Source of the DNA: a virus
Virus record (IMG/VR): IMGVR_UViG_3300036772_000425
Location: 1 to 10,923 of that record
DNA: 10,923 bases
Direction: 5' to 3' (one strand)
The translations under genes were made by a program, and so were the position numbers. The notes beneath the pieces are model-generated. The model did no database searches. It had not been told where the DNA came from and was given only the letters and a program-made list of their open reading frames with translations. Positions 1-10,923 of this stretch are shown in pieces; the first letter of the stretch is position 1, and each line of letters opens with the position of its first letter.

Positions 1-771
1 CTCCACCTCTGTCAACGAAGGGCTGATCCGCTGCATCGCCGACTGTTTCAGCGTCTTGCTGTACTGGTGCATGTTGACCAGATCATGTGCGTTCGTGGAG
101 CTGGGATCCTTGATGGTCCTGTCGACCAGGTCATGCATGAACTTCGTGTTGATCTGAGTGTTCGTTGTGACATGCTTCAAACGCTTGAAGTACTCATTGA
201 GAACACGTGTGCTGGCCTTCGGTTCTGTCAGCCCCTGTTTTTTGGGCCGGGTCGCGGCGGACGATGCGGGCACGTAGAAGGTGGATCCGTGGGCAAGGTC
301 AGGCAGCGTCATAGACCGGAAGATCCAGTGAGGCTTGATGTGCGGCGGCAGCAGCGGGATGAACCGTTGAGCTGCCTTGTAGTGGCTGACATGCTGGTCA
401 TGTTCTTCCTCGAGCGAAGCATGCACGATCGATCCGGAGACCATCTCATGGATCTTCTTGTCGATGTGGCCGTCATGGAAGTGGACCGCGGCGAAACTGT
501 TGGACGCGAAATCATCCTCAGTGACAACCTTGTCGATGTTGTCCAGGATCAACGAACCGTTCTGCTCTCCGGTGTTCTTCAAGGAATTGGCGCGGGCAGC
601 GACCTCGCTGACCGTGCCGCCAACATCCGCGAGCTTGGGTCGATGCCATCTGAACTCGACGAACCTGGGCACGCGGGTCACAGACCACTGGATGAAACCT
701 GAGTCTATCTCGTCAGAGCCTTTCGCAAGGACGTTGGAGGGTACACCCCCGGTCTCATTGACACTTTCATC
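1..771 (-). CDS. Hypothetical protein, partial (C-terminus lies beyond window start). I translated 257 codons by hand from ATG at 771..769: MESVMETGGVPSNVLAKGSDEIDSGFIQWSVTRVPRFVEFRWHRPK...VHFHDGHIDKKIHEMVSGSIVHASLEEEHDQHVSHY...TEVE. Contains a His-rich cluster (HFHDGH, EEHDQH) that may bind metal.
   Basis: Minus-strand codons beginning at positions congruent to 1 mod 3 contain no stop from 870 down to position 1; the nearest upstream stop is 871-873. The first ATG in that frame is the reverse complement of 769-771. Codon usage (ATC, AAG, GAC, TTC, CAG, AAC) matches the other minus-strand genes. The opposing plus ORF 67..702 has antisense-shadow composition. The ORF track omits this frame because there is no in-window stop. 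Confidence 0.6.
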
Positions 772-863
772 CGGGACAAAGAAGTTGTAGAAGTACTTTG
801 ACTCGAAGTTCTTGACCTCCGGGATGTCGATCAGGTAGACCGGCCGCGACGGTTGTGAAACGC
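772..863 (-). promoter_or_regulatory. 92-nt intergenic region between the 1392-aa gene and the downstream partial gene; possible module boundary, promoter or attenuator. Contains CAAAGTAC about 29 nt upstream of ATG and a weak ACCG/CGGT hairpin at 841-856
   Basis: Largest non-coding gap in the window. Shares CAAAGTAY with 8513-8548. No convincing intrinsic terminator: short stem and no U-tract. Confidence 0.2.
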
Positions 864-3800
864 TCACAGATCATCCTCCAAGGTTTCGATTGTGATGAAG
901 TACTTGTCGGTGATCAGATCACCCTGGCTCTTGTCTCGATCTCGGTACCTGAACGCATGCACATCATCGGGCGGTTGTGACTTGATGAAACCCCGGCCGA
1001 GGTTCGGATTGACTGTCAAGGCAAGCAGCGACAGGCCGGCAGAAAGCGCTCGAAGCGTCGGAGCATCGTGTTCGGATGAAACGATGTCGCCCGTCTCCAG
1101 CAGCTGCCTCAACGCGTTCCTACCGTGCGGTGTTGCGTTCGTTTTCTTGGCATTGACCAGGAAGTCCCTCGGATCCACGATCACATTGAACACCCTGTCA
1201 AAGCACTTGGGTGACAGCACCTTGTGGTTCAAAGCCTTGACCTGCGAGAAAGATGTCATGGTACGTGACAGCGATGAAATTGCATGCAACGATGTCATGA
1301 TCAGATCGGTGTGTCGGGCGCTCAAGGATGACAGCGTCAATTTCGCTGGGTCGATCGCGAGCAGCTGATCAGCGCTCTTCTGGGAGGGCACACTGGGCTG
1401 CACCGATCTGAATTCAGAGGCCGGCGATACGTAACCGGCAACACCGGCAGGGTTGCTCATCACGGGATCTATGATGCCGCGCGAACCACGTGCGTTGGTG
1501 ACACCAGTTGAACGTCGGGTTGATGTTCCTGAGAACAGGACGCCTCCCGTGGGGGAATCGGCATTGACAGTACGAGGAACCTTCAGGAGATCTCCCATGT
1601 GTGAGATCGCATGATCCAGAAGCAACTTGACCTCCGCCGATTCCAGCTGCGGGGGCGGAGGTGTGAAATGGTACTCGTGCTCGGCTACGTTGATCCCGGT
1701 CATCAGCTTGATGTACGCCTCCAACAACTGGCTGACGACCTGGTTGTGCAGGATCTCTGTTCGTTGCTGCGGGCTCAGGAAATCGTACCCTCCTCCCTCG
1801 AACGCTCCTCTGGCTCCTTTGATCCCATCTGACCCTGCGATGGCCGTCGATGCATACTCCACTCCGGATGCGATGCTGTTCGAAGTGCCCTTGTTCGGAT
1901 CCTGCGTAAAATTCTGCGTCGGGATCGCAGAGACGATGTCATGAAGGGCTGGGTTCTCAGGCAGGGGCAGCCAGTGTGCTGTGGTGAAACGGGTGGGGAA
2001 CCTGGACAGTTCGAACAGGTACTTCACCGGACGGTAGACAATGTCCGGATGCTGGATGTCCAGCTTGTACACGCAAATCCTGACGATGTCAGAACGCTTG
2101 TCCTCGAACGAAGCCTTCTTCTGATCCTTCAGGGTGACCTTCTGCTTGAGGTTCCGGGTGAAACCTTGGGGGATTCCGACAGTCAGGATCCTCTTGTTCC
2201 TGCCATGGATCCCCGCGAACTCGCCTGTGCCGAAGTACCCCATGATCGCCTTGAGCATCTCCGGAGGTACCTCAGATTCATCCAAAATGGCTGTCTCCCG
2301 ATTGGTGGGCCGACCGGTGGCATTGTACGATCGCCTTTGGGTTCCAACTCCCTTCTGATCCTTGTTTCGTGCATGGGCCGTGAGGAGGCTCTCTACAGTG
2401 GATGCCAACAGCATGATCTGCTGTTCGCTGAATAGCATCTTGATCAGCTCTGCATTGTTGTTCAAGGTGCTCGAGATCTGGTGCAGCTTGTCGAGAGAGT
2501 CCTTGCTGTTGAGGTAGTTGCTGATCCCGAGCAAGGATCCGCTCAATTTCCTCATGGCATTGAGCGTTGTCAGCAGCAGCTGGCGGGTCAAGTATCCCTC
2601 TGCAGACAATCGTTGGATGAGCTCGTTGAATGAAGTGAGATGATTGCTACTGTTACGTGAGACCACGTAGGTTGTCTGTCCGGTAGAAAAGGTGGTCAAC
2701 CCCTTGTGCACCCCGACCAGGTCTTGGTTGCTGTACCTGCTGATGATCGATATCGCAAGGTCGAAAGCGACCATGGCAACGACCGTGTCCTGGGCTCCCC
2801 TGTACCGGGTCAGGTTCCCGCTCAGTGCCTGGGATCGGTTCCGGAACCAGTTCAGAACATCGCTCATGAACCCCTCGACCAGGGTGGTCATCCGGGTACC
2901 AGACTTCAACGCATGCTTGATGCTGTCGTTGGTCAATGAGGCGGTGTTCAGCAGCGGATCTAGCGGATCGTTCACCAACTGCACCACTGTCGGTGACTCC
3001 GGCACCGTGGACTCAAGCAGGTTGACAAGCTGATCGATCAGCTTGTCGACGATGGGGGTGTTGTCTGACCCCGGTGAGGCTGAAAAGAACGGCACGTTGT
3101 TCTTGTAGGTCCGTGCCAACCGGTTCATGGTGTACAGGAAGAGGATGGTTTTGACCTGTGGGTGGGTCCTGGCGTGAGCGTACACAGCCCCCAACCTATC
3201 GTTGATTGCGATGGTGCGGGCCTCACCGTTCCGTGGATTGATCAGTTGATCAACGAGCTGGTGCACCGTGTCGGTGCTGTTTTCCAGGAAAGAAACGTCC
3301 AACATCAGCGGAATGTCCAATCCGAACATGTGCATCACTGTCTGGGACGGGATCGCCATCAGGTTCAACGAATCACAGATCACAGAGAGGTTATCAGCCT
3401 GGTTCTGCAACCTCTTGCTCAGGTTGTCGATGGCCTGGGTGTCGAACTTGGAACCATCGGTGTTCAAAATCCTGTCGAAGTAGAAGTCGGACCCGGGCGT
3501 CAGGGTTCCGTTGTCACCCTCCACGAACTTTGACTCAAACGTAAGGATCCCAGCGTTCTCCACCCGTTCCTGGCCGACGCTCGCCACGGAACGCAGGTTC
3601 GCTGATGGAAAATCTGAGATGTTGTTGACCAGGCTGCCCATCACGGAATTGAACAGGCCCATGTTACGTGTTGGGGTGACCTGGTACCCGTAGAACGATG
3701 ACAACCTTCGCTGCAAAGCAGGGTCAGCAAGGCCGTTCGAGTAGCGGAATTCCCGGGTCAGCAGGTGGGCGAGGGCAGCGATCTTGGTCTCTTCATTCTT

Positions 3801-5042
3801 GAAGAAAACATCCTGGTAGATCTTGCCGAATGCTGTGGACAGGGTCTGGACGGCCTTTGCGGAACCTGCGGGTTGCAGTTTCACGAGGTCCTCCAGCGAC
3901 ATGACCTGTGGCAGGTCTGTGATGAAATCGAACCTTTTGGTGGGCGGGTTGAGGATGGTGGATGGGTTCTGATCCTTCTTCTGTTGGGTTGGATCGATGT
4001 CAAGCAACCGGTACGAATGGTGCTGGAGGATGTGCCTGAGATCGGTCACGGTCTGCAGCCAGATCTTTGTCGATGAGAAGAATTTTCGGGCCAGATTCTC
4101 CTTGTACCCGAGGTCCGTCAAACAATCCACAAAGTTGTATTTCGGCCGTGGAGCGCGCTGGACGAGCAATGATAGGATGTGAGGTGCAAGTTCGGGCGCC
4201 ATGTAGGGCCGTTGTTGGGCAAAGTTCTGCAGGAAGAAGGTGGCAACCTCTGTCGGATCGACCTCGTAGAGGTCGTGCCGCAGGTCGAGCTGGCTCTTCT
4301 GGCTCTCAACGAGCCGCACCAGGTTCAACATGAAGCCCGCGTCGTCCTTCAGGCTGAAGATTGCACGTGTGAAATTGTCCTCACGTAGACGCAGGTGCTG
4401 CTCCACCTGGGCGTACCTGGTTCGAACGGACTCAATGCTCCGATGGATGTTGAATGCATTCAGGTTCCGCATGTGGAACTGAGCATCAATGTACCTGCCT
4501 GCATCGGTGATGAAATGCGACAGGCCTGCCGCCTCAAATGCTTCGATGTAGGCTGGGACGGTGCTGCTGGTGGCCCTATCGTAGAGGGGCAGGAACTCCG
4601 TCATCATCACAATCTCAGGACGTTCGTGAGTGATCCCAGTCAGGTTCGTGTACACCTGGAACTTCGTTGCAGTGGACGCTAGGTTCTGAAGCAACCTTGG
4701 GTCCAAGGTTTTCCCAGAATCACGGGCAAGCGGGTAGGTGGGGATGATGTTGCCGCCTGCAGACCGTTGCGGGATGATCATCCCTGATTCGCTGGTCAAT
4801 CCGTCAGCGATCTGTTCCAACGTGGGTTCAGCGGTCACGTTCAAACCGCCGCTGTCGGTGGAGATGACCGGATGGGGCAGCTGCACCTGGTGCGCTGTGG
4901 GCACCGACGTGGACAGGGTGTGGGTGGTCTGCGATGTTTGCTGCTTTGCGGCAGCCTGCAGGTTATCATCCGGTGACAACGGTTGAGTATTGACAGCTAC
5001 GTTCGCGAATGAACCGTTGTTGGACCGCAGGGTCTTGATCAT
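864..5042 (-). CDS. Hypothetical giant protein (1392 aa), N/Q/S/T/D-rich, with no recognisable catalytic motif; candidate large virion, internal or tail-associated protein
   Basis: Uninterrupted 4.2-kb ORF. Start ATG at 5042..5040 overlaps the TGA stop of the upstream 820-aa gene as ATGA. Strong C/G-ending codon bias consistent with neighbouring genes. Weak GGTGGAAG purine-rich stretch 4-12 nt upstream of the start. All plus-strand ORFs inside it are short and R/D/V/L-rich. Confidence 0.85.
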   Translation of the reverse strand: MIKTLRSNNGSFANVAVNTQPLSPDDNLQAAAKQQTSQTTHTLSTSVPTAHQVQLPHPVISTDSGGLNVTAEPTLEQIADGLTSESGMIIPQRSAGGNIIPTYPLARDSGKTLDPRLLQNLASTATKFQVYTNLTGITHERPEIVMMTEFLPLYDRATSSTVPAYIEAFEAAGLSHFITDAGRYIDAQFHMRNLNAFNIHRSIESVRTRYAQVEQHLRLREDNFTRAIFSLKDDAGFMLNLVRLVESQKSQLDLRHDLYEVDPTEVATFFLQNFAQQRPYMAPELAPHILSLLVQRAPRPKYNFVDCLTDLGYKENLARKFFSSTKIWLQTVTDLRHILQHHSYRLLDIDPTQQKKDQNPSTILNPPTKRFDFITDLPQVMSLEDLVKLQPAGSAKAVQTLSTAFGKIYQDVFFKNEETKIAALAHLLTREFRYSNGLADPALQRRLSSFYGYQVTPTRNMGLFNSVMGSLVNNISDFPSANLRSVASVGQERVENAGILTFESKFVEGDNGTLTPGSDFYFDRILNTDGSKFDTQAIDNLSKRLQNQADNLSVICDSLNLMAIPSQTVMHMFGLDIPLMLDVSFLENSTDTVHQLVDQLINPRNGEARTIAINDRLGAVYAHARTHPQVKTILFLYTMNRLARTYKNNVPFFSASPGSDNTPIVDKLIDQLVNLLESTVPESPTVVQLVNDPLDPLLNTASLTNDSIKHALKSGTRMTTLVEGFMSDVLNWFRNRSQALSGNLTRYRGAQDTVVAMVAFDLAISIISRYSNQDLVGVHKGLTTFSTGQTTYVVSRNSSNHLTSFNELIQRLSAEGYLTRQLLLTTLNAMRKLSGSLLGISNYLNSKDSLDKLHQISSTLNNNAELIKMLFSEQQIMLLASTVESLLTAHARNKDQKGVGTQRRSYNATGRPTNRETAILDESEVPPEMLKAIMGYFGTGEFAGIHGRNKRILTVGIPQGFTRNLKQKVTLKDQKKASFEDKRSDIVRICVYKLDIQHPDIVYRPVKYLFELSRFPTRFTTAHWLPLPENPALHDIVSAIPTQNFTQDPNKGTSNSIASGVEYASTAIAGSDGIKGARGAFEGGGYDFLSPQQRTEILHNQVVSQLLEAYIKLMTGINVAEHEYHFTPPPPQLESAEVKLLLDHAISHMGDLLKVPRTVNADSPTGGVLFSGTSTRRSTGVTNARGSRGIIDPVMSNPAGVAGYVSPASEFRSVQPSVPSQKSADQLLAIDPAKLTLSSLSARHTDLIMTSLHAISSLSRTMTSFSQVKALNHKVLSPKCFDRVFNVIVDPRDFLVNAKKTNATPHGRNALRQLLETGDIVSSEHDAPTLRALSAGLSLLALTVNPNLGRGFIKSQPPDDVHAFRYRDRDKSQGDLITDKYFITIETLEDDL

Positions 5043-7501
5043 GGAGCTTCCACCACTAGGGTATTGGTGACGGTGGGGGAGCCCACCTTGTAATCGCTGT
5101 AGATCGGAACGATGACGAACTGCAGCGCTCCCACGTCAGACGAAGTGATCTTGTGAATGTACTGGCAACTACCGTTGGTGAATTCCGAATGAGCCTTGCC
5201 GATCGCTGTCCTGATCCCATGAACCTGCTTCATGATCAGGAAATGATCGACCTGGGTGATGTCACCCGTCAAACGCCAGGTCACGAGGTTCAACTGCCTG
5301 TCGAAGTTGGCGGCGACGGCCTCGGTGATCGTTGCCGTCTCTTGGTCGAATGAGACCTCCGTGGAGGTGATGGATCCGATCACTCCGTGGGCCATCGGAT
5401 CCTTGGCATACCGCAGCACGGCACCCTTTGAGGTGACAATGACCCCTTTGTTCAAGGTGAGTGGATGCAGGAATTTTGCAGGTGAGAAGGTATATACCTT
5501 CTTGGTGATTGGGTCGGTTGCAGTTTTGACGAATGAATCAAAGAGCGTTTCGGGTTGGCGCAGCAGCGGATAGATCACGTACCTGTACCGATGACCGTAC
5601 TGGAGTGCTGCGATGGACTGGTTCTTCCGCAGTGATTCATCATCGAAGTTGGGGACAGTGATCGTCCCAAAGTTCTCAAGGAGACCCGTGTTCAGGTCGA
5701 TCCGATGGATTTGGTGCGCGATCAACCTGGTCAGCTGGTCACGTTGGGCCTCAATGTCACCGGTGAAGTACGAACTGAGACCTTGATTGTCAAGCATCTG
5801 CTTGAAAGCGTCCAGATCAGTTCCGACAACCGTTGTCGTGACGGTGAAAGAAACGTTCGGAGTGGTGTCAGTCACCACCTTCAGATCCGTGATCTCTGTG
5901 TCCACCTCTCCGGGCGATGGGTTGACGAACTCGATGGTCGCTGCGCCGGCTGGGTTCACGTCACCGTCGATGTAGATGAGTTCGACGGTGTACTGGTACA
6001 CGTGGTCGTACGTAACATCAGTGTCGATGAGGACGAGCAGGTCAGCCTCCCTGGTGGCATCATCTATGAAACCAACATCATCTCCCACCGTCTCAGGATC
6101 CGACTCAAAGATTGATAGGTCAACCCTCAGGAATCTGACAGCAACCACGTTGGTTGGGAACTGCCTCACCTCGAGCTGGATGCCCGTGTCGACCTGTAGG
6201 GCGGTCAAGGAGATGGATTTCACGGGCGTGTAATGCGCAGGTTTCACCACGACGTTGGTGTACTCGAACCCCTGCAGCGATTGTGAACCTTTCGGTATCA
6301 CCCGGTACAGAGCCGGAGACGAGGTGGGTCGATCGACCTGCACCAGCAACGATTGATCCATGGTCGTCAACGGGTACGTACCGATCAACGTGTAGTCATC
6401 CACCTCTGGTGTAGAGATCCAGAATGATTTCTTGTACACGTCGACGGTCGTTGCGCCGGGATCCAGCTGTTTCACCTCCAGGTTCACCTTCGAGGAAACC
6501 TCGGATGCCGACAACTTGACAGTCGGCGGTACCTTCGGAGTCCTGTACACCTGGACATGCTGAGTGATGTCCAACAGTTTCGTGGCAGAATCGATCGCCA
6601 TTCCGCTGTCTGGATCCAGCAGCTCAAAGACAACCTGAACCTGCGTGAGGGGAGCGCCCTCGAGGTTCAGTTTCCCGACCGGGATTCCCAACGGCACCAC
6701 GATCTCGATCTGATCGTCAGGGGTCGACGTCAGGATCTGGACCAGCTCTGTGTCCACCAGGTTGTCGGTGGTCGTGGGGGGAGCAAGAGACGACGGCGGG
6801 AAGAGATGGTAGTTCAGGAGGCGCGGCGCAGGGTCTGTCTTCGTCTCTTGCGCGCGTTGTGTGTTCGACAGGCCACCGTGTGTGGCAGCTTCAGGGGAAG
6901 CGCGGGGGGTCAGGTTCAGTATCTGGCTGGGATCTTGGCCCTGTTGGACGATCATCCTGTGCATCAGGGTCGTGGGCTCCTCGATCAGAGAGGCTGAGAG
7001 CAGGCCTTGGATGTCGGGAACAATGACAGTGTGCAGGATAGGTTGAGGGTCGTTCGCCTGCTTGGTCTGCAGGGCGGAGCTCAACGTCAGCTTGGGTCGA
7101 TTCAGGCTTGGAATCTCTGAGACAGGCGCCTGAGCCAGCAACTGCGGAACGATCTGATTGTTGATCTTGGAGGAGATGTCGCTGAGCTTGGACGCAAGCA
7201 CGTAAACTGTCTGCTGATCGACTGTTGTCTTCGCATCGGTCACCATGGTGAGCACATTGTCCACGATGGACTGTGCATCTACGTAGCCCTTGGTGCTCTG
7301 CTGCAGCACGTTCTTCCGAGCAACTGTCCTTGCCACGATCTTTGTGTTGACCTTCAGGGCACGGTACGAGACCACCTGCTTCTGAGAAACCGAGTACGTG
7401 AACCGGAAGTGCAGGTTGCCAAGCTCGTCGATCAGCCTGAGATGCGCAAAATTGTCCTCCACGACGAGGATCTGGGCCTTGTTCTGGTACCTGAAGTACA
7501 T
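5039..7501 (-). CDS. Hypothetical protein (820 aa). N-terminal roughly 190-aa region, then a Pro/Thr-rich linker (…PAPRLLNYHLFPPSSLAPPTTTDN…), then a long V/T/D-rich, probably beta-rich C-terminal region; candidate fibre, tail-tube or baseplate-type structural protein
   Basis: 2.46-kb ORF. Start ATG at 7501 lies only 3 nt after the TAA stop (7505-7507) of the upstream gene, on the minus strand TAAAGCATG. Its TGA stop is embedded in the ATGA overlap with the 1392-aa gene. Same codon bias as neighbours. Confidence 0.85.
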   Translation of the reverse strand: MYFRYQNKAQILVVEDNFAHLRLIDELGNLHFRFTYSVSQKQVVSYRALKVNTKIVARTVARKNVLQQSTKGYVDAQSIVDNVLTMVTDAKTTVDQQTVYVLASKLSDISSKINNQIVPQLLAQAPVSEIPSLNRPKLTLSSALQTKQANDPQPILHTVIVPDIQGLLSASLIEEPTTLMHRMIVQQGQDPSQILNLTPRASPEAATHGGLSNTQRAQETKTDPAPRLLNYHLFPPSSLAPPTTTDNLVDTELVQILTSTPDDQIEIVVPLGIPVGKLNLEGAPLTQVQVVFELLDPDSGMAIDSATKLLDITQHVQVYRTPKVPPTVKLSASEVSSKVNLEVKQLDPGATTVDVYKKSFWISTPEVDDYTLIGTYPLTTMDQSLLVQVDRPTSSPALYRVIPKGSQSLQGFEYTNVVVKPAHYTPVKSISLTALQVDTGIQLEVRQFPTNVVAVRFLRVDLSIFESDPETVGDDVGFIDDATREADLLVLIDTDVTYDHVYQYTVELIYIDGDVNPAGAATIEFVNPSPGEVDTEITDLKVVTDTTPNVSFTVTTTVVGTDLDAFKQMLDNQGLSSYFTGDIEAQRDQLTRLIAHQIHRIDLNTGLLENFGTITVPNFDDESLRKNQSIAALQYGHRYRYVIYPLLRQPETLFDSFVKTATDPITKKVYTFSPAKFLHPLTLNKGVIVTSKGAVLRYAKDPMAHGVIGSITSTEVSFDQETATITEAVAANFDRQLNLVTWRLTGDITQVDHFLIMKQVHGIRTAIGKAHSEFTNGSCQYIHKITSSDVGALQFVIVPIYSDYKVGSPTVTNTLVVEAP

Positions 7502-7504
7502 GCT

Positions 7505-8512
7505 TTACTCGAACACGAGGGTGAACAGGTGCAGGAAGGTGTCAGTGCCCTTTTCGTCGACCTCAACCTTGCCGACAAAGAAGATGTCAGCGATTGGCGC
7601 TGCATCGTTCCCAGTGTGGAAATTCCCGAAATGGACAACGTCCAGCTTCTTCAGGCCGTTGGCCGTCCGTTCGAAGAACTGGCCGACCAGCTGGTTGTCA
7701 CGTGAACTTGGATCAAAGTTGATCACCCGTTCGTACCCCATCATGGAGTAGTGAGCCAGTTCCGCCATCGTCTGTTTGTACGTCAACCCGAACACCTGCG
7801 TTCGACCCCACGGGAAGTACCAGCCCAGGAAGAGCTTGCTGAACTCGCGATGGTCGCTTCGATCCAGTGAAGTATCGTTCGTCTTGTTGATCGGGGGCAG
7901 GAACTTGAAGTTGGGGCGCGTGCTGAACCGAGGATCGCTGAAGATGCTATCGAGCGCGCTGACATGGGTGGTCTGCTGCTCGGCTCCGGCAATGGGACGG
8001 TTGTCATGGATGGCGAACGTCACATCGTTGGGCCCAAGGGCGAAACCATCATCATCGAAGATGGTGTCACGCGTTGCGATCAGCATCATCCGCTTGAAGT
8101 TCTTCAACGAAGAGCTCAGCAGGAGCTCCGCACCGTCCTCGAAGGCCGCTCCTTGAAGCGTGATGACATCCTGAGAAAACCCGACAAAGGTTGAACCGGA
8201 TACAGCATTGAACGAGTAGTCCAATATCCTGCCACCCGCGGTGGGTACGTCGTCGGAGCTGCGGAAAGGTTGCAGGTTCCCATCATCGTCAGCCCTGAAG
8301 ACGATGTCGTCCTGCGGCAGCTGGCACGATTCCAGGTACAGACGTTTCGTCGCGTCCTCGCTGCCGGTGTCCGCGTCCGCCCTGTAGTACGTGGCCCCGT
8401 CCGTGAAGGAAACGTACTTGATATCGACACCGCCCTCCGACAGCTGCCGGCGGCCCTCGGTGGTGATCACGGTGTCAATGATTCGGGATTTGCTGTCCAG
8501 GATCCCTGACAT
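7505..8512 (-). CDS. Hypothetical acidic protein (335 aa; D+E far exceed K+R); candidate capsid or virion component
   Basis: 1-kb ORF with the same codon bias. Preceded by the 36-nt AT-rich intergenic spacer 8513-8548 and followed by a 3-nt spacer before the next gene. Confidence 0.8.
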   Translation of the reverse strand: MSGILDSKSRIIDTVITTEGRRQLSEGGVDIKYVSFTDGATYYRADADTGSEDATKRLYLESCQLPQDDIVFRADDDGNLQPFRSSDDVPTAGGRILDYSFNAVSGSTFVGFSQDVITLQGAAFEDGAELLLSSSLKNFKRMMLIATRDTIFDDDGFALGPNDVTFAIHDNRPIAGAEQQTTHVSALDSIFSDPRFSTRPNFKFLPPINKTNDTSLDRSDHREFSKLFLGWYFPWGRTQVFGLTYKQTMAELAHYSMMGYERVINFDPSSRDNQLVGQFFERTANGLKKLDVVHFGNFHTGNDAAPIADIFFVGKVEVDEKGTDTFLHLFTLVFE

Positions 8513-8548
8513 GTCTCAAATATACTTTGGGCTCGATAACGCTGCCGT
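8513..8548 (-). promoter_or_regulatory. Candidate internal promoter, or leaderless-transcript start, for the 335-aa gene: AT-rich island …GTTATCGAGCCCAAAGTATATTTGAGAC immediately before ATG
   Basis: This is the only AT-rich stretch in a GC-rich block. TATATT ends 7 nt before the A of ATG, the geometry of a -10 element driving a leaderless mRNA. Alternatively TTAT at -27..-24 fits archaeal-type TATA spacing. The CAAAGTAY motif is shared with the other intergenic gap. Confidence 0.3.
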
Positions 8549-8992
8549 TCAGCGTCGTACAAGCCTGACACGCTGCGGTTGGTGCCGTTGCGATGAGTAC
8601 GTTTTCTTGAACCGTGTCAGATCACGCTGCGGAAGTTCAGGTTCTGGTTCCTCTGGAGGGGCTGGGAACACATCCCATTCACCAGATCCCACACCCTGGT
8701 TGGTGGTGGGATTCTGGTCTGACACGGCCGACGTCCGATCCTGGCTCTCGCTCAGGATCTCGTGAGCGCCCCAGGTGTTCATGAGCCCACCCCAACTGCC
8801 GGACTCCAACGTGCCGATGTCAACTCCGGAGTTGGCACCGAATGTATTCATCAGCCCACCCCAACTGCCGGTCTGCCAGCTGGAGACAGTGTAATCCAGT
8901 GCCAACATCGAGTTGCTGTTGGCGGACGGGTACCAAGCACCCGTGATGAACGTGTTGGTTTCAGAGGTTGTCAGTTCAACGATGGATGCCAT
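8549..8992 (-). CDS. Hypothetical small protein (147 aa from the internal Met, MASIVELTT…; the ORF track gives 165 aa from 9046). Contains a tandem 23-aa repeat carrying GSWGGLMNT[F/W]GA, an acidic Pro/Glu segment, and a basic C-terminal tail (RFKKTYSSQRHQPQRVRLVRR)
   Basis: ORF 8549..9046. Starting at the first Met would overlap the upstream 535-aa gene by 50 nt. The in-frame ATG at 8992..8990 lies 4 nt after that gene's TGA (8997-8999), minus strand TGAGATCATG, which matches the tight-junction pattern elsewhere in the block. The 9046 start remains possible. Confidence 0.6.
   Translation of the reverse strand: MASIVELTTSETNTFITGAWYPSANSNSMLALDYTVSSWQTGSWGGLMNTFGANSGVDIGTLESGSWGGLMNTWGAHEILSESQDRTSAVSDQNPTTNQGVGSGEWDVFPAPPEEPEPELPQRDLTRFKKTYSSQRHQPQRVRLVRR
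8771..8872. repeat. Imperfect direct repeat of about 32 nt with a 69-nt period (…gt[g/a]ttcat[g/c]agcccaccccaactgccgg…) encoding the duplicated GSWGGLMNT[F/W]GA peptide
   Basis: agcccac occurs at 8784-8790 and 8853-8859 with the identical downstream run cccaactgccgg. The offset is 69 nt, i.e. 23 codons. Confidence 0.5.
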
Positions 8993-8996
8993 GATC

Positions 8997-10604
8997 TCAG
9001 AGTCCGTTGATTCCGCCCCAAGGCATGTACATGCCGCCCAAGGCATGGAACCATTGCATGTTGGTGTCGACAGTCGACCACGAAGGTTGCCCTGTCACCC
9101 TGCCGAACCGGGCGATGGGAACTCGACCCATCCTTCGAGGTTCGATCGGGAACACTGCATTGTCCGAGTAGTTCCGGTTGTTGTCCAGCGTACCTGCGTA
9201 CAGGTCGGAGGTGGTGAGCTCGGTGGCGTTCAGGAAGGGTGAATCTCCGGCAGCCACATCGAACCTGATGCTACTGGAGTTTGCCGGTGAGGCAGAAACG
9301 TATGACAGGCTTGACATCACGCACGACAGCGGGCCGTTCCTGCTGTCCAAGGAGTACGCCATCCCGCTGACACCCTCTACCTTGGCCGCGCCGCAGCGCC
9401 AATCTACACCAGCAAGAAACCCACGTTGGGTCTGACCGACCACGAAAAGACTTTGGGCACTGGAAGCACCCGGCACGGGAGTCTCACCCTCAGGTTGTCC
9501 GAACATCGCAAAGACATGGCTCGCGCTCGATTGGTTACGCAGCATCACGAGGCAGGTTCCGGTGACATCGTCAGCCCAAGCATAGAAACGGTAGCTGATC
9601 GCAGTACCGGCCTGAGGACCACCGGTTGAAGATCCGGTGGTGGCGACAGCGAGAGCATCGATGCCGGGCATCGATCCCACGTATGCGGCGGCGTTTGCAT
9701 ACGAAAAATTGAACCACTGCGGACCGTGGAGGTGCAGCGCGGCCGGACTGCCGAACTGTCCCACCGGGAAATCACCGTTCGATCCACCCATTCCAGGGAT
9801 CGCGGTGAAAGCTGGGTTACCGGTGCTCTCAGAACCACCGAAGCTGATCGTGGCGGTGGACTCCAAGGCCAACCTGACATTCCAGTTCAGTGATGAAGGG
9901 CTCTTCATCAGGAGCCGCGGGTAGGTGCTGCCGCCCTGTCCCTGGTACTGGGTCGTATCACCCGTGGCTCGAAGTGAATTGAAGGTTGGCCATGCAACTC
10001 CCGTTCGAACGGGTCCCCGACCGAAAGATCCCGTGCCGGTGTCAGAACCGGGCGGCGGCAACCAGATCGATGCGACCACGTAGCTGCCTGTCTCGTTGAG
10101 GGTGGGTGAAGTCGACCTGTAATCGATCTCGATGGAATTCTGGGACAACCAGCTGGACACGTCAGTGATCCGAAAGATCCCAGAGTTCGCCAGTGGGTTC
10201 TGGGTGCTCTTGATCACGGCCCAACTTCCGAGCAGTGGGTTCTGGCTGGGCCATGAACCGGACGATTGGGGCCAGTTTGTCGGGAACGCTGCGCTCATCA
10301 GGTTGACCATGTCCTGCGAGAACCGCAGGAGCGTATGACCGCCCGACCCAGAAATGAAGCAGCACGGTGTGCTCTCTGGTATGATGGAGGAACTGACGGT
10401 GCTGAAGGCACTGCCGTTCCAAGAATCATAATTGATGGTTTGGGATGGGTTCAGGTTCGGCAGCAGGCTTCCCGCGGAGCTCTGTGTCGTGTAACCCACA
10501 ACACCCTTCAGGAAGACAGCCAACGCCCACATCGTATCGTACGAACCGGTGGCAAGCTGTCGCGAGCCACCCAGGACCAGATCACGGCATGCGTGGATCG
10601 TCAT
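8997..10604 (-). CDS. Hypothetical G/S/T/A/N-rich, Trp-containing protein with very few charged residues (535 aa from MTIHACRDL…; 562 aa if started at 10685); candidate capsid, fibre or surface-exposed structural protein
   Basis: 1.69-kb ORF. The internal ATG at 10604..10602 forms an ATGA overlap with the TGA stop (10603..10601) of the upstream partial gene, the same architecture as the 5039-5042 junction. AGGGA lies 4 nt upstream of this ATG. The track start at 10685 would overlap the upstream gene by 84 nt. Confidence 0.75.
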   Translation of the reverse strand: MTIHACRDLVLGGSRQLATGSYDTMWALAVFLKGVVGYTTQSSAGSLLPNLNPSQTINYDSWNGSAFSTVSSSIIPESTPCCFISGSGGHTLLRFSQDMVNLMSAAFPTNWPQSSGSWPSQNPLLGSWAVIKSTQNPLANSGIFRITDVSSWLSQNSIEIDYRSTSPTLNETGSYVVASIWLPPPGSDTGTGSFGRGPVRTGVAWPTFNSLRATGDTTQYQGQGGSTYPRLLMKSPSSLNWNVRLALESTATISFGGSESTGNPAFTAIPGMGGSNGDFPVGQFGSPAALHLHGPQWFNFSYANAAAYVGSMPGIDALAVATTGSSTGGPQAGTAISYRFYAWADDVTGTCLVMLRNQSSASHVFAMFGQPEGETPVPGASSAQSLFVVGQTQRGFLAGVDWRCGAAKVEGVSGMAYSLDSRNGPLSCVMSSLSYVSASPANSSSIRFDVAAGDSPFLNATELTTSDLYAGTLDNNRNYSDNAVFPIEPRRMGRVPIARFGRVTGQPSWSTVDTNMQWFHALGGMYMPWGGINGL

Positions 10605-10923
10605 ACCATCCCTGCAAAGATGTCCCGGTTGGGGACGATAGAGTGATCCCAAGGCAGCACGATACCGTTGCCCGCATGGATCCAACGGCCGCCAGCGGCA
10701 TCATCGAAGCGAGCGAACCGTGAGAACCCGCTCATGTACTTCACTGAACGGATCCGAGCCCTGACCAGGCTGAACTGCCCGGTCGCAGAAACCTGCCCGT
10801 TGATGGTGGGCAACGAGAGGAACGGATCGGGAAGCAGGACCTGGTTCGTGATCTTGTTGTACAGGATGGGCCACCTGCTGTTCTGAACGCTGTCAGTGGC
10901 ACTGTTCGGCCACATGGATGAAT
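10601..10923 (-). CDS. Hypothetical protein, partial (N-terminus lies beyond window end). Visible C-terminal part: …NSRWPILYNKITNQVLLPDPFLSLPTINGQVSATGQFSLVRARIRSVKYMSGFSRFARFDDAAGGRWIHAGNGIVLPWDHSIVPNRDIFAGMV
   Basis: Open minus-strand frame from the window edge to the TGA at 10603..10601. Codon usage like neighbours. The reported Met at 10915 is only 2-3 codons from the window edge, so the true start is probably outside the window. Confidence 0.55.
   Translation of the reverse strand, partial: SSMWPNSATDSVQNSRWPILYNKITNQVLLPDPFLSLPTINGQVSATGQFSLVRARIRSVKYMSGFSRFARFDDAAGGRWIHAGNGIVLPWDHSIVPNRDIFAGMV

Follow-up and report, generated by a model that had tools for sequence, protein, structure and literature searches.

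Described systems closest to the locus

In Flavobacterium phage immuto (vB_FspM_immuto, Immutovirus; NC_055915, gp113–gp101) a baseplate assembly gene (gp113) and a wedge gene (gp112) are followed by gp111, gp110, gp109, gp108, gp107, gp106 and gp105, and the cluster ends with tail fibre gp104, tail spike gp103, gp102 and tail spike gp101. Here we compare such clusters with a stretch of 10,923 nt from the IMG/VR virus record IMGVR_UViG_3300036772_000425 (the window, meaning the whole stretch; coordinates without a locus name are window positions). The window carries seven co-directional genes, gA to gG, four of which (gD, gE, gF and gG) form a conserved cassette that lies, in distant relatives, within a baseplate cluster. 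The reading that we favour, with some reserve, is that the window, as part of an uncultivated jumbo phage of the T4-like type, encodes an appendage specific to its lineage, at the baseplate periphery or of the tail-fibre kind.

The metagenomic clade to which the window belongs shares with immuto the homologs of four genes in the same order (the wedge, c9, c7 and c4, described below), a T4-type major capsid protein (MCP; 42% identical) and the co-directional run of post-wedge genes, which in immuto leads toward the fibre and spike genes. Immuto differs in lacking gD, gE, gF and gG as well as the X and Y paralogs of the window, and in having a single 403-aa gene where the metagenomic clade has an array of Z proteins and the ~10-kb cassette. 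Its genome is also much smaller (160 kb vs about 340–370 kb). A literature search on immuto phages returned no virion proteomics.

The gp6–gp12 cluster of T4 (wedge, short tail fibre) resembles the locus in its large co-directional structural genes following a gp6-type wedge, in its tight overlaps or abutments and in its protein sizes (660, 1032, 334 and 602 aa). It differs in size order and has no detectable sequence similarity; the sole recognisable counterpart in T4 is that of the gp6-like wedge of the relatives, identified via PHROGs. Domains of the fibronectin-III (FN3) fold, which is also the fold of gE, decorate the exterior of phage tail proteins (PMC8718954). Among FN3/Ig phage tail proteins, the SPP1 gp17.1* extension, lambda gpJ-type tips and the T1 tail fibre (9l9p_S) have no counterpart of the N-terminal 250 residues of gE or of its overall architecture. 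Huge metagenomic phages, exemplified by LR756508 (484 kb; Al-Shayeb et al. 2020, PMC7162821), are similar in having a very large uncultivated genome, and a relative of the window has a transfer-messenger RNA (tmRNA). LR756508 shares the MCP (50% identity), the wedge (31%) and the N-terminal domain of c4, but tblastn found no match to gD, gE, gF or gG in it.

The cassette and its place in a baseplate cluster

Eighty IMG/VR loci were retrieved with a diverse gD alignment (gD identity 33–67%), and their synteny was established by local profile searches. The order, strand and close spacing of gD, gE, gF and gG are kept in 69 of the 80 loci and gG is syntenic in 70; loci without the full cassette are mostly cut by a contig end. 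The cassette is followed by c4 (238 aa) in 62 loci and by c5 (~410 aa) in 38. In the window's own genome, for which a Logan assembly (L006) was available, c4 follows it too (L006:13058, E 1e-92). Homologs of gF are 34–45% identical in eight genomes and those of gG 49–60% identical in nine. The gF protein has a low-complexity N-terminus, with conserved blocks throughout.

In 16 distant loci the following genes lie on one strand: a gp6-like wedge, c9 (~516 aa), c7 (~1140 aa), two or three Z proteins, gD, gE, gF, gG, c4 and c5. The wedge gene of these loci matches the PHROG baseplate-wedge families phrog_219 and phrog_6 (2.8e-10 and 2.5e-9). Compared with the annotated baseplate wedge of immuto, the 614-aa wedge shows 30% identity over 98% of the query (E 5e-68), and it also matches wedge genes of Mel-JY01, LR756508 and the PA5oct type. 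Three further genes of immuto have equivalents in the distant loci: gp111 is c9 (1e-25), gp109 is c7 (2.7e-14) and gp107 is c4 (5.7e-24). The N-terminal domain of c4 is also found 6–7 kb downstream of the wedge in Mel-JY01 and LR756508. The wedge, c9, c7 and c4 all have homologs in immuto, so that the cassette is placed, between c7 and c4, in a baseplate cluster shared with a cultured myovirus; no other evidence for a role in the tail is as strong.

Four loci (L231, L246, L257 and L259) have gD at the end of a co-directional block without gE, gF and gG; the next gene is a 330-aa gene, or the genes that follow are oppositely oriented. gD is therefore able to exist without the rest of the cassette. 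Within c7 (immuto gp109) there is a weak pentraxin/LamG-like stretch at profile positions 222–334 (alignment A10; e.g. L233:2755-6201), with the motifs W.HVA.VWD and IDELRIW and a best PDB match of E 0.001.

Phage origin of the window

A protein identical to gD is recorded on a 340,433-bp contig. The 5.8-billion-protein collection contained 576 homologs of gD, many of them on contigs of 320–370 kb, and HMMER searches of 1.84 billion representatives yielded 725 gD clusters (50% identity) at E<=1e-3 and 351 at E<=1e-30. The same block, with a gD that is 55% identical, is present on the 369,475-bp IMG/VR contig 3300005529_000001 (the 369-kb relative), where it is followed in order by genes for a RuvC-like protein, primase, SbcD, SbcC, large terminase, portal, prohead protease, peptide deformylase and MCP. 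The head genes, 15–35 kb downstream of the block, make up a module of the T4 type: the large terminase TerL (phrog_2, 5.5e-51), the portal (phrog_213, 4e-71), a gp21-type prohead protease (phrog_207, 1e-43) and a 640-aa gp23-type MCP (phrog_138, 2e-75). This MCP matches 2,569 GenBank records of T4-like phages, the closest being Microcystis phage Mel-JY01, LR756508, LR756511, Flavobacterium phage immuto and Rhodothermus phage RM378. Thus terminase, portal and major capsid genes, which a previous interpretation made from the letters of the window (the sequence-only reading) had proposed to look for by extending the contig, were all found on a relative carrying the same block.

No relative of gD was found in 185,579 GTDB genomes, one for each bacterial or archaeal species. 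With hallmark genes in the relative and no relative in GTDB, the window is therefore almost certainly part of a ~340-kb uncultivated jumbo tailed phage of the T4-like assemblage, and a cellular operon is excluded.

Properties of gD and gE

No protein of the block is better conserved than the 335-aa gD (7505–8512, minus strand), which anchors the cassette. Comparison of a gD alignment (n=45) with c4 by hhalign gave a probability of 85.5% (E 5.6e-6) over 151 columns, corresponding to the first ~160 residues of gD. The gD profile matches immuto gp107 at 14.9 bits, and the N-termini of the two families are alike (gD MSGILDSKSRIIDTVITTEGRRQL, c4 MGFLD.STNNIILDAVLTDTGRQFL). The N-terminal half of gD is probably homologous to c4 and immuto gp107. 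A model of gD made with AlphaFold2 from 30 close homologs had a predicted local distance difference test score (pLDDT) of 46 and was unusable.

About one in ten representatives of the gD family is longer (446–509 aa) and carries an insertion of ~120–150 residues after residue ~100. These variants are P0194, P0238, P0242, P0244, P0245, P0254, P0257, P0279, P0291 and P0316; a Pfam search with the ten gave zero matches, the insert included.

The structural model of the 820-aa gE (5039–7501, minus strand) is a confident fold. It consists of an alpha/beta N-terminal region and several fibronectin-III/Ig-like beta-sandwich domains, which are seven-stranded and have the FN3 topology. Three fold searches with this model returned generic FN3 domain matches only, at the level of single domains and with TM of 0.1–0.2. 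The Pfam fn3 models do not detect gE.

Searches for known families

The seven window proteins gave zero matches in Pfam and PHROGs, as did 45 diverse gD relatives in PHROGs. In a tblastn search of 50,697 GenBank phage records, gD, gE, gF, gG and a distant gD relative had no match, for gE, gF and gG even at E<=1, and a megablast search of GenBank phages with the window was equally negative. Profiles of gD, gE, gF, gG, X, Y and c4 had insignificant matches only among PDB sequences (E >= 0.04 for the window families), and the NCBI and JGI names of gD homologs are 'hypothetical protein' only. The statement of the sequence-only reading that no protein could be matched to a named family is thus borne out by Pfam, PHROGs, PDB sequences and GenBank phages.

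A number of specific assignments were tried and rejected. The similarity of gD to T4 gp8 in length (335 vs 334 aa) and in its C-terminal ...LFTF was accompanied by E values of 3–8. The sizes 335, 820 and 1392 aa invited a reading as T7-like tail tubular and internal virion proteins, for which gp10, gp12, gp15 and gp16 families and a podovirus genome context were sought; the ~340 kb genome, the T4-type head and the absence of a PHROG or Pfam match speak against it, and the analogy to an internal-protein module drawn earlier found no support. For gF as a tape measure protein there was no match in PHROG, Pfam or PDB, and it lies between gE and gG instead of among chaperone or hub genes; coiled-coil content was not part of the comparison. 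Comparisons by hhalign gave a probability below 1% for a relationship of X or Y to gD and of gE, gF or gG to c7 or c9.

A proposed tail appendage and the alternatives

In the model that we propose, the N-terminal domain of gD would be a duplicate of the c4 domain and would serve to dock the appendage on the baseplate. As an FN3-like chain, gE would make up the appendage body together with gF (1392 aa) and gG (658 aa), whereas the X/Y paralogs (gA and gB) and gC would be exchangeable distal parts contacting the host surface. The proteins gD–gG would be translated as one coupled unit by means of overlapping or nearly abutting stop and start codons, the unit beginning at its own promoter-like TATATTTG box. 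In inferring the structural role we rely on the gene neighbourhood and on a single fold and have no direct match to go by. The sequence-only reading had described the block as an uncharacterised viral structural module with tailed-phage tail modules as the nearest analogy, and the T4-type genes of the relatives and the position in the baseplate cluster support that description.

Several observations weigh against a tail appendage. The window's subclade has the cassette, along with c4 and c5, apart from the wedge: wedge, c9 and c7 are 34–42 kb away on the opposite strand of the same contigs. The cassette lies there after genes for PhoH-PIN, an XPD-like helicase, ClpP and a GroEL-like protein, and before those for the RuvC-like protein, primase and SbcCD. 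gD is unusually conserved for a fibre component, and its link to c4 is a moderate profile–profile score, not a strong one. When profiles of gD, gE, gF, gG, X and Y were searched with hmmsearch against 36 T4 head and tail proteins, including gp2–gp28, they gave noise only, the best match being gG with gp3 (E 0.0045 at 6 bits), and the T4 baseplate wedge families gp6, gp7, gp8, gp9, gp10, gp11, gp53 and gp25 have no detectable homology to window proteins. No function is named by any sequence or fold match of a window protein, the FN3 matches of gE being generic. The clade is, moreover, uncultivated and known from sequence alone.

The non-structural neighbours in the subclade would suit proteins that are not part of the virion, such as an intracellular scaffold or a host-takeover or replication-associated complex specific to the clade; so would the lack of any structural family matching a window protein, and the high conservation of gD, which is like that of a core machine part. 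We nevertheless regard this as unlikely, because the cassette is embedded co-directionally in the baseplate cluster of 16 distant genomes, because c4, its regular companion, is part of the baseplate cluster in immuto, Mel-JY01 and LR756508, and because a multi-FN3 protein such as gE would be unusual in the cytoplasm for a phage. Even less probable are head proteins, either a Hoc-like capsid decoration or internal head proteins that a very large capsid would need. The FN3-like domains of gE recall the Ig-like domains of T4 Hoc, and jumbo phages often have paralogous families of head proteins, arrays of paralogs being present here. The Y profile (gB) had its best match among the 36 T4 proteins with Hoc, at an insignificant E of 0.077. 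Portal, protease and MCP form a separate cluster 15–35 kb away, however, and the genes with which the cassette associates are wedge, c9, c7 and c4 and not those of the head. Large beta-rich FN3-like proteins also occur among bacterial surface proteins, but an adhesin or secretion operon on a bacterial chromosome, the cellular alternative raised in the sequence-only reading, is effectively refuted by the lack of relatives in the species genomes, by the absence of any Pfam adhesin or secretion domain and by the related loci, every one of which is an IMG/VR viral contig carrying phage hallmark genes.

The tail appendage thus remains our preferred reading, and it has a bolder variant, about which we are rather doubtful. 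In this variant gD–gG would be an undescribed four-protein virion organelle that defines a large, globally distributed, uncultivated T4-like clade (the 725 gD clusters), has folds largely without a solved relative, arose with an anchor duplication from c4 to gD and is mobile as a unit. Such an organelle could be a new device for host recognition or envelope penetration and not an ordinary tail fibre.

With 725 clusters in public metagenomes the gD family is widespread, yet it has no entry in Pfam, PHROGs, PDB or the 50,697 phage genomes. As a consequence, automatic annotation of many large soil and freshwater phage contigs leaves ~10 kb of conserved genes blank. Annotators and structural biologists gain a starting point from the placement of the cassette in the baseplate module and from a testable model that combines an anchor duplicated from c4, an arm of FN3 domains and distal paralogs that vary; gD, for its part, is useful as a marker gene of the clade. 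Although these widespread families lack annotation, the locus represents a familiar kind of system, a phage tail module, and leaves the general principles of phage biology unchanged.

The variable zone upstream of gD

The genes preceding the cassette differ between genomes. gA (10601–10923, minus strand) is partial, its 5′ end lying beyond the end of the window, to which the frame remains open. It is the 3′ part of an X-family gene (about 430–475 aa in relatives), and the ATG at 10915 is internal. In L006 gA is at least 166 aa long, and its alignments with the C-terminal ends of X-family proteins from L012 and L014 show 25–38% identity. The next gene, gB (8997–10604, minus strand), encodes 535 aa and belongs to the Y family of paralogs (about 440–560 aa), being 27–30% identical to six Y paralogs of L012 and L014. 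Ser, Thr, Gly and Asn together make up 38% of its residues, and gB is a candidate variable distal or receptor-binding component.

Not every genome has an X/Y array: in some of the relatives three tandem X–Y pairs precede a gC homolog, and others have nothing of the kind. The X-Y-X-Y-X-Y tandem stands directly upstream of gC and gD and its copy number varies between genomes (window 8997-10923, L014:996-9461, L012:918-9461; also L195, L197, L200, L201 and L206). X and Y end in similar motifs, an Arg-rich stretch followed by W.H..NGV..PW; despite these similar C-terminal motifs, a relationship between X and Y was rejected, the hhalign probability being only 12%. Distant relatives have at the same place, upstream of gD, the 'Z' array, which is unrelated to X/Y. 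Variable arrays of paralogs upstream of gD, whether X/Y or Z, are typical of genes diversifying for host recognition.

gC (8549–8992, minus strand; 147 aa) has homologs of 162–163 aa in the same position in L012 and L014. It contains an internal direct repeat, SGSWGGLMNTxGA, in two copies (GSWGGLMNTFGA and GSWGGLMNTWGA). On the longest Y paralogs of L012 and L014 the C-terminal motif of gC, TRFKKTYS, is found again, there within an extension of the C-terminus (TRYKKTYSYFRQP; alignment A6), which suggests that gC is a detached Y tail. The 'beta-rich' composition ascribed to the proteins of the block holds for gE, for which alone it was shown, while gB and gC are rich in Ser, Gly and Thr.

Genes and junctions

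As the sequence-only reading had stated, all credible genes are on one strand: every long open reading frame that behaves as a gene lies on the minus strand. The gene starts were confirmed by an independent gene call on L006. The largest protein of the cassette is encoded by gF (864–5042, minus strand; 1392 aa). gG (1–867, minus strand) starts with GTG and is partial in the window, which covers the first 289 of its 658 residues; the full length was read on L006.

The junctions quoted in support of a block joined by ATGA overlaps and spacers of 3–4 nt are present on the minus strand: ATGA at 5039–5042 (gF/gE) and at 10601–10604 (gA/gB), TAA-AGC-ATG around 7499–7507 (gE/gD) and TGA-GATC-ATG at 8990–8999 (gB/gC), where the start of gC follows the gB stop after GATC. 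That description had missed two junctions, the GTGA overlap at 864–867, by which gF and gG are joined, and the 36-nt gap at 8513–8548, which leaves gC and gD not tightly joined. Tight overlaps of this sort are ordinary for phage operons; the gene block is real, but ordinary in form.

Translation starts and promoter-like elements

Upstream of gG there is a perfect GGAGG (875–879), 7 nt before the GTG; it falls within the 3′-terminal part of gF. No other Shine-Dalgarno (SD) sequence of the window is strong: the remaining five starts are weak (duplex dG -1.5 to -4.9 kcal/mol). For 76 starts of the window's genome and its relatives, a duplex with the anti-SD of <= -6 kcal/mol was found at 33% of starts vs 9% of random positions, and one of <= -8 kcal/mol at 13% vs 2%. 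SD use in the clade is moderate, not absent. The claim that the block has no SD sequences therefore fits the five weak starts but not gG or the clade, across which SD-like sites are enriched. With this enrichment and the GGAGG in the window, the step from missing SD sequences to a host with SD-independent initiation is weak, and initiation of the leaderless or Bacteroidota type was rejected as a general explanation, since the anti-SD enrichment upstream of starts speaks against it. gD itself has no SD and may be nearly leaderless.

The gC–gD intergenic region (8513–8555, minus strand) holds two elements. A hairpin at 8539–8555 overlaps the stop codon of gC, and the region folds at -21.2 kcal/mol (z-score -2.7). 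The octamer TATATTTG (8517–8524) ends 4 nt before the ATG of gD. In five genomes whose intergenic sequence is otherwise different it occurs exactly once per locus, 4–12 nt upstream of the gD start. We infer that TATATTTG is a candidate promoter with a very short or absent leader, at the start of the gD–gG unit. The octamer resembles ATACTTA-type boxes that precede the capsid gene and further genes of the head module by 20–25 nt in the 369-kb relative; it is likewise similar to the late promoter of T4, TATAAATA, and to the -7 box of Bacteroidota, TAnnTTTG.

Several head-module genes in the 369-kb relative have the box itself, (G)ATACTTA or CTACTTA, 20–25 nt upstream, with SD-like sites after it (examples are L016:17315-17353, L034:16772-16829 and L034:18951-19000); it may be the late promoter of the clade. 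Scans for sigma-70 promoters and terminators gave results at chance level, and neither an Rfam RNA family nor, by ARAGORN, a tRNA was found in the window.

Host indications and inserted genes

The hosts suggested earlier on the strength of missing SD sequences included Bacteroidota and cyanobacteria. The nearest cultured relatives by capsid and wedge infect Flavobacterium and Microcystis, members of two of the phyla listed; this is a loose fit and no identification of the host. About 3 kb past its capsid gene the 369-kb relative has a tmRNA gene (L114:14203-14572), whose tag is ANDNGFADDVRLAA. Tags of the form ANDN...RLAA are similar to those of Alphaproteobacteria such as Sinorhizobium. If this similarity holds, the tag would point to a host group other than the Bacteroidota suggested by the capsid relatives.

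In some relatives genes of the homing-endonuclease type (NUMOD3, TnsA-like, GIY-YIG) are inserted between conserved genes. They were seen at L012:17766-18269, at L008:18668-19528 and 22413-22811 and at L034:14125-14886; the one in L012 lies between gF and gG.

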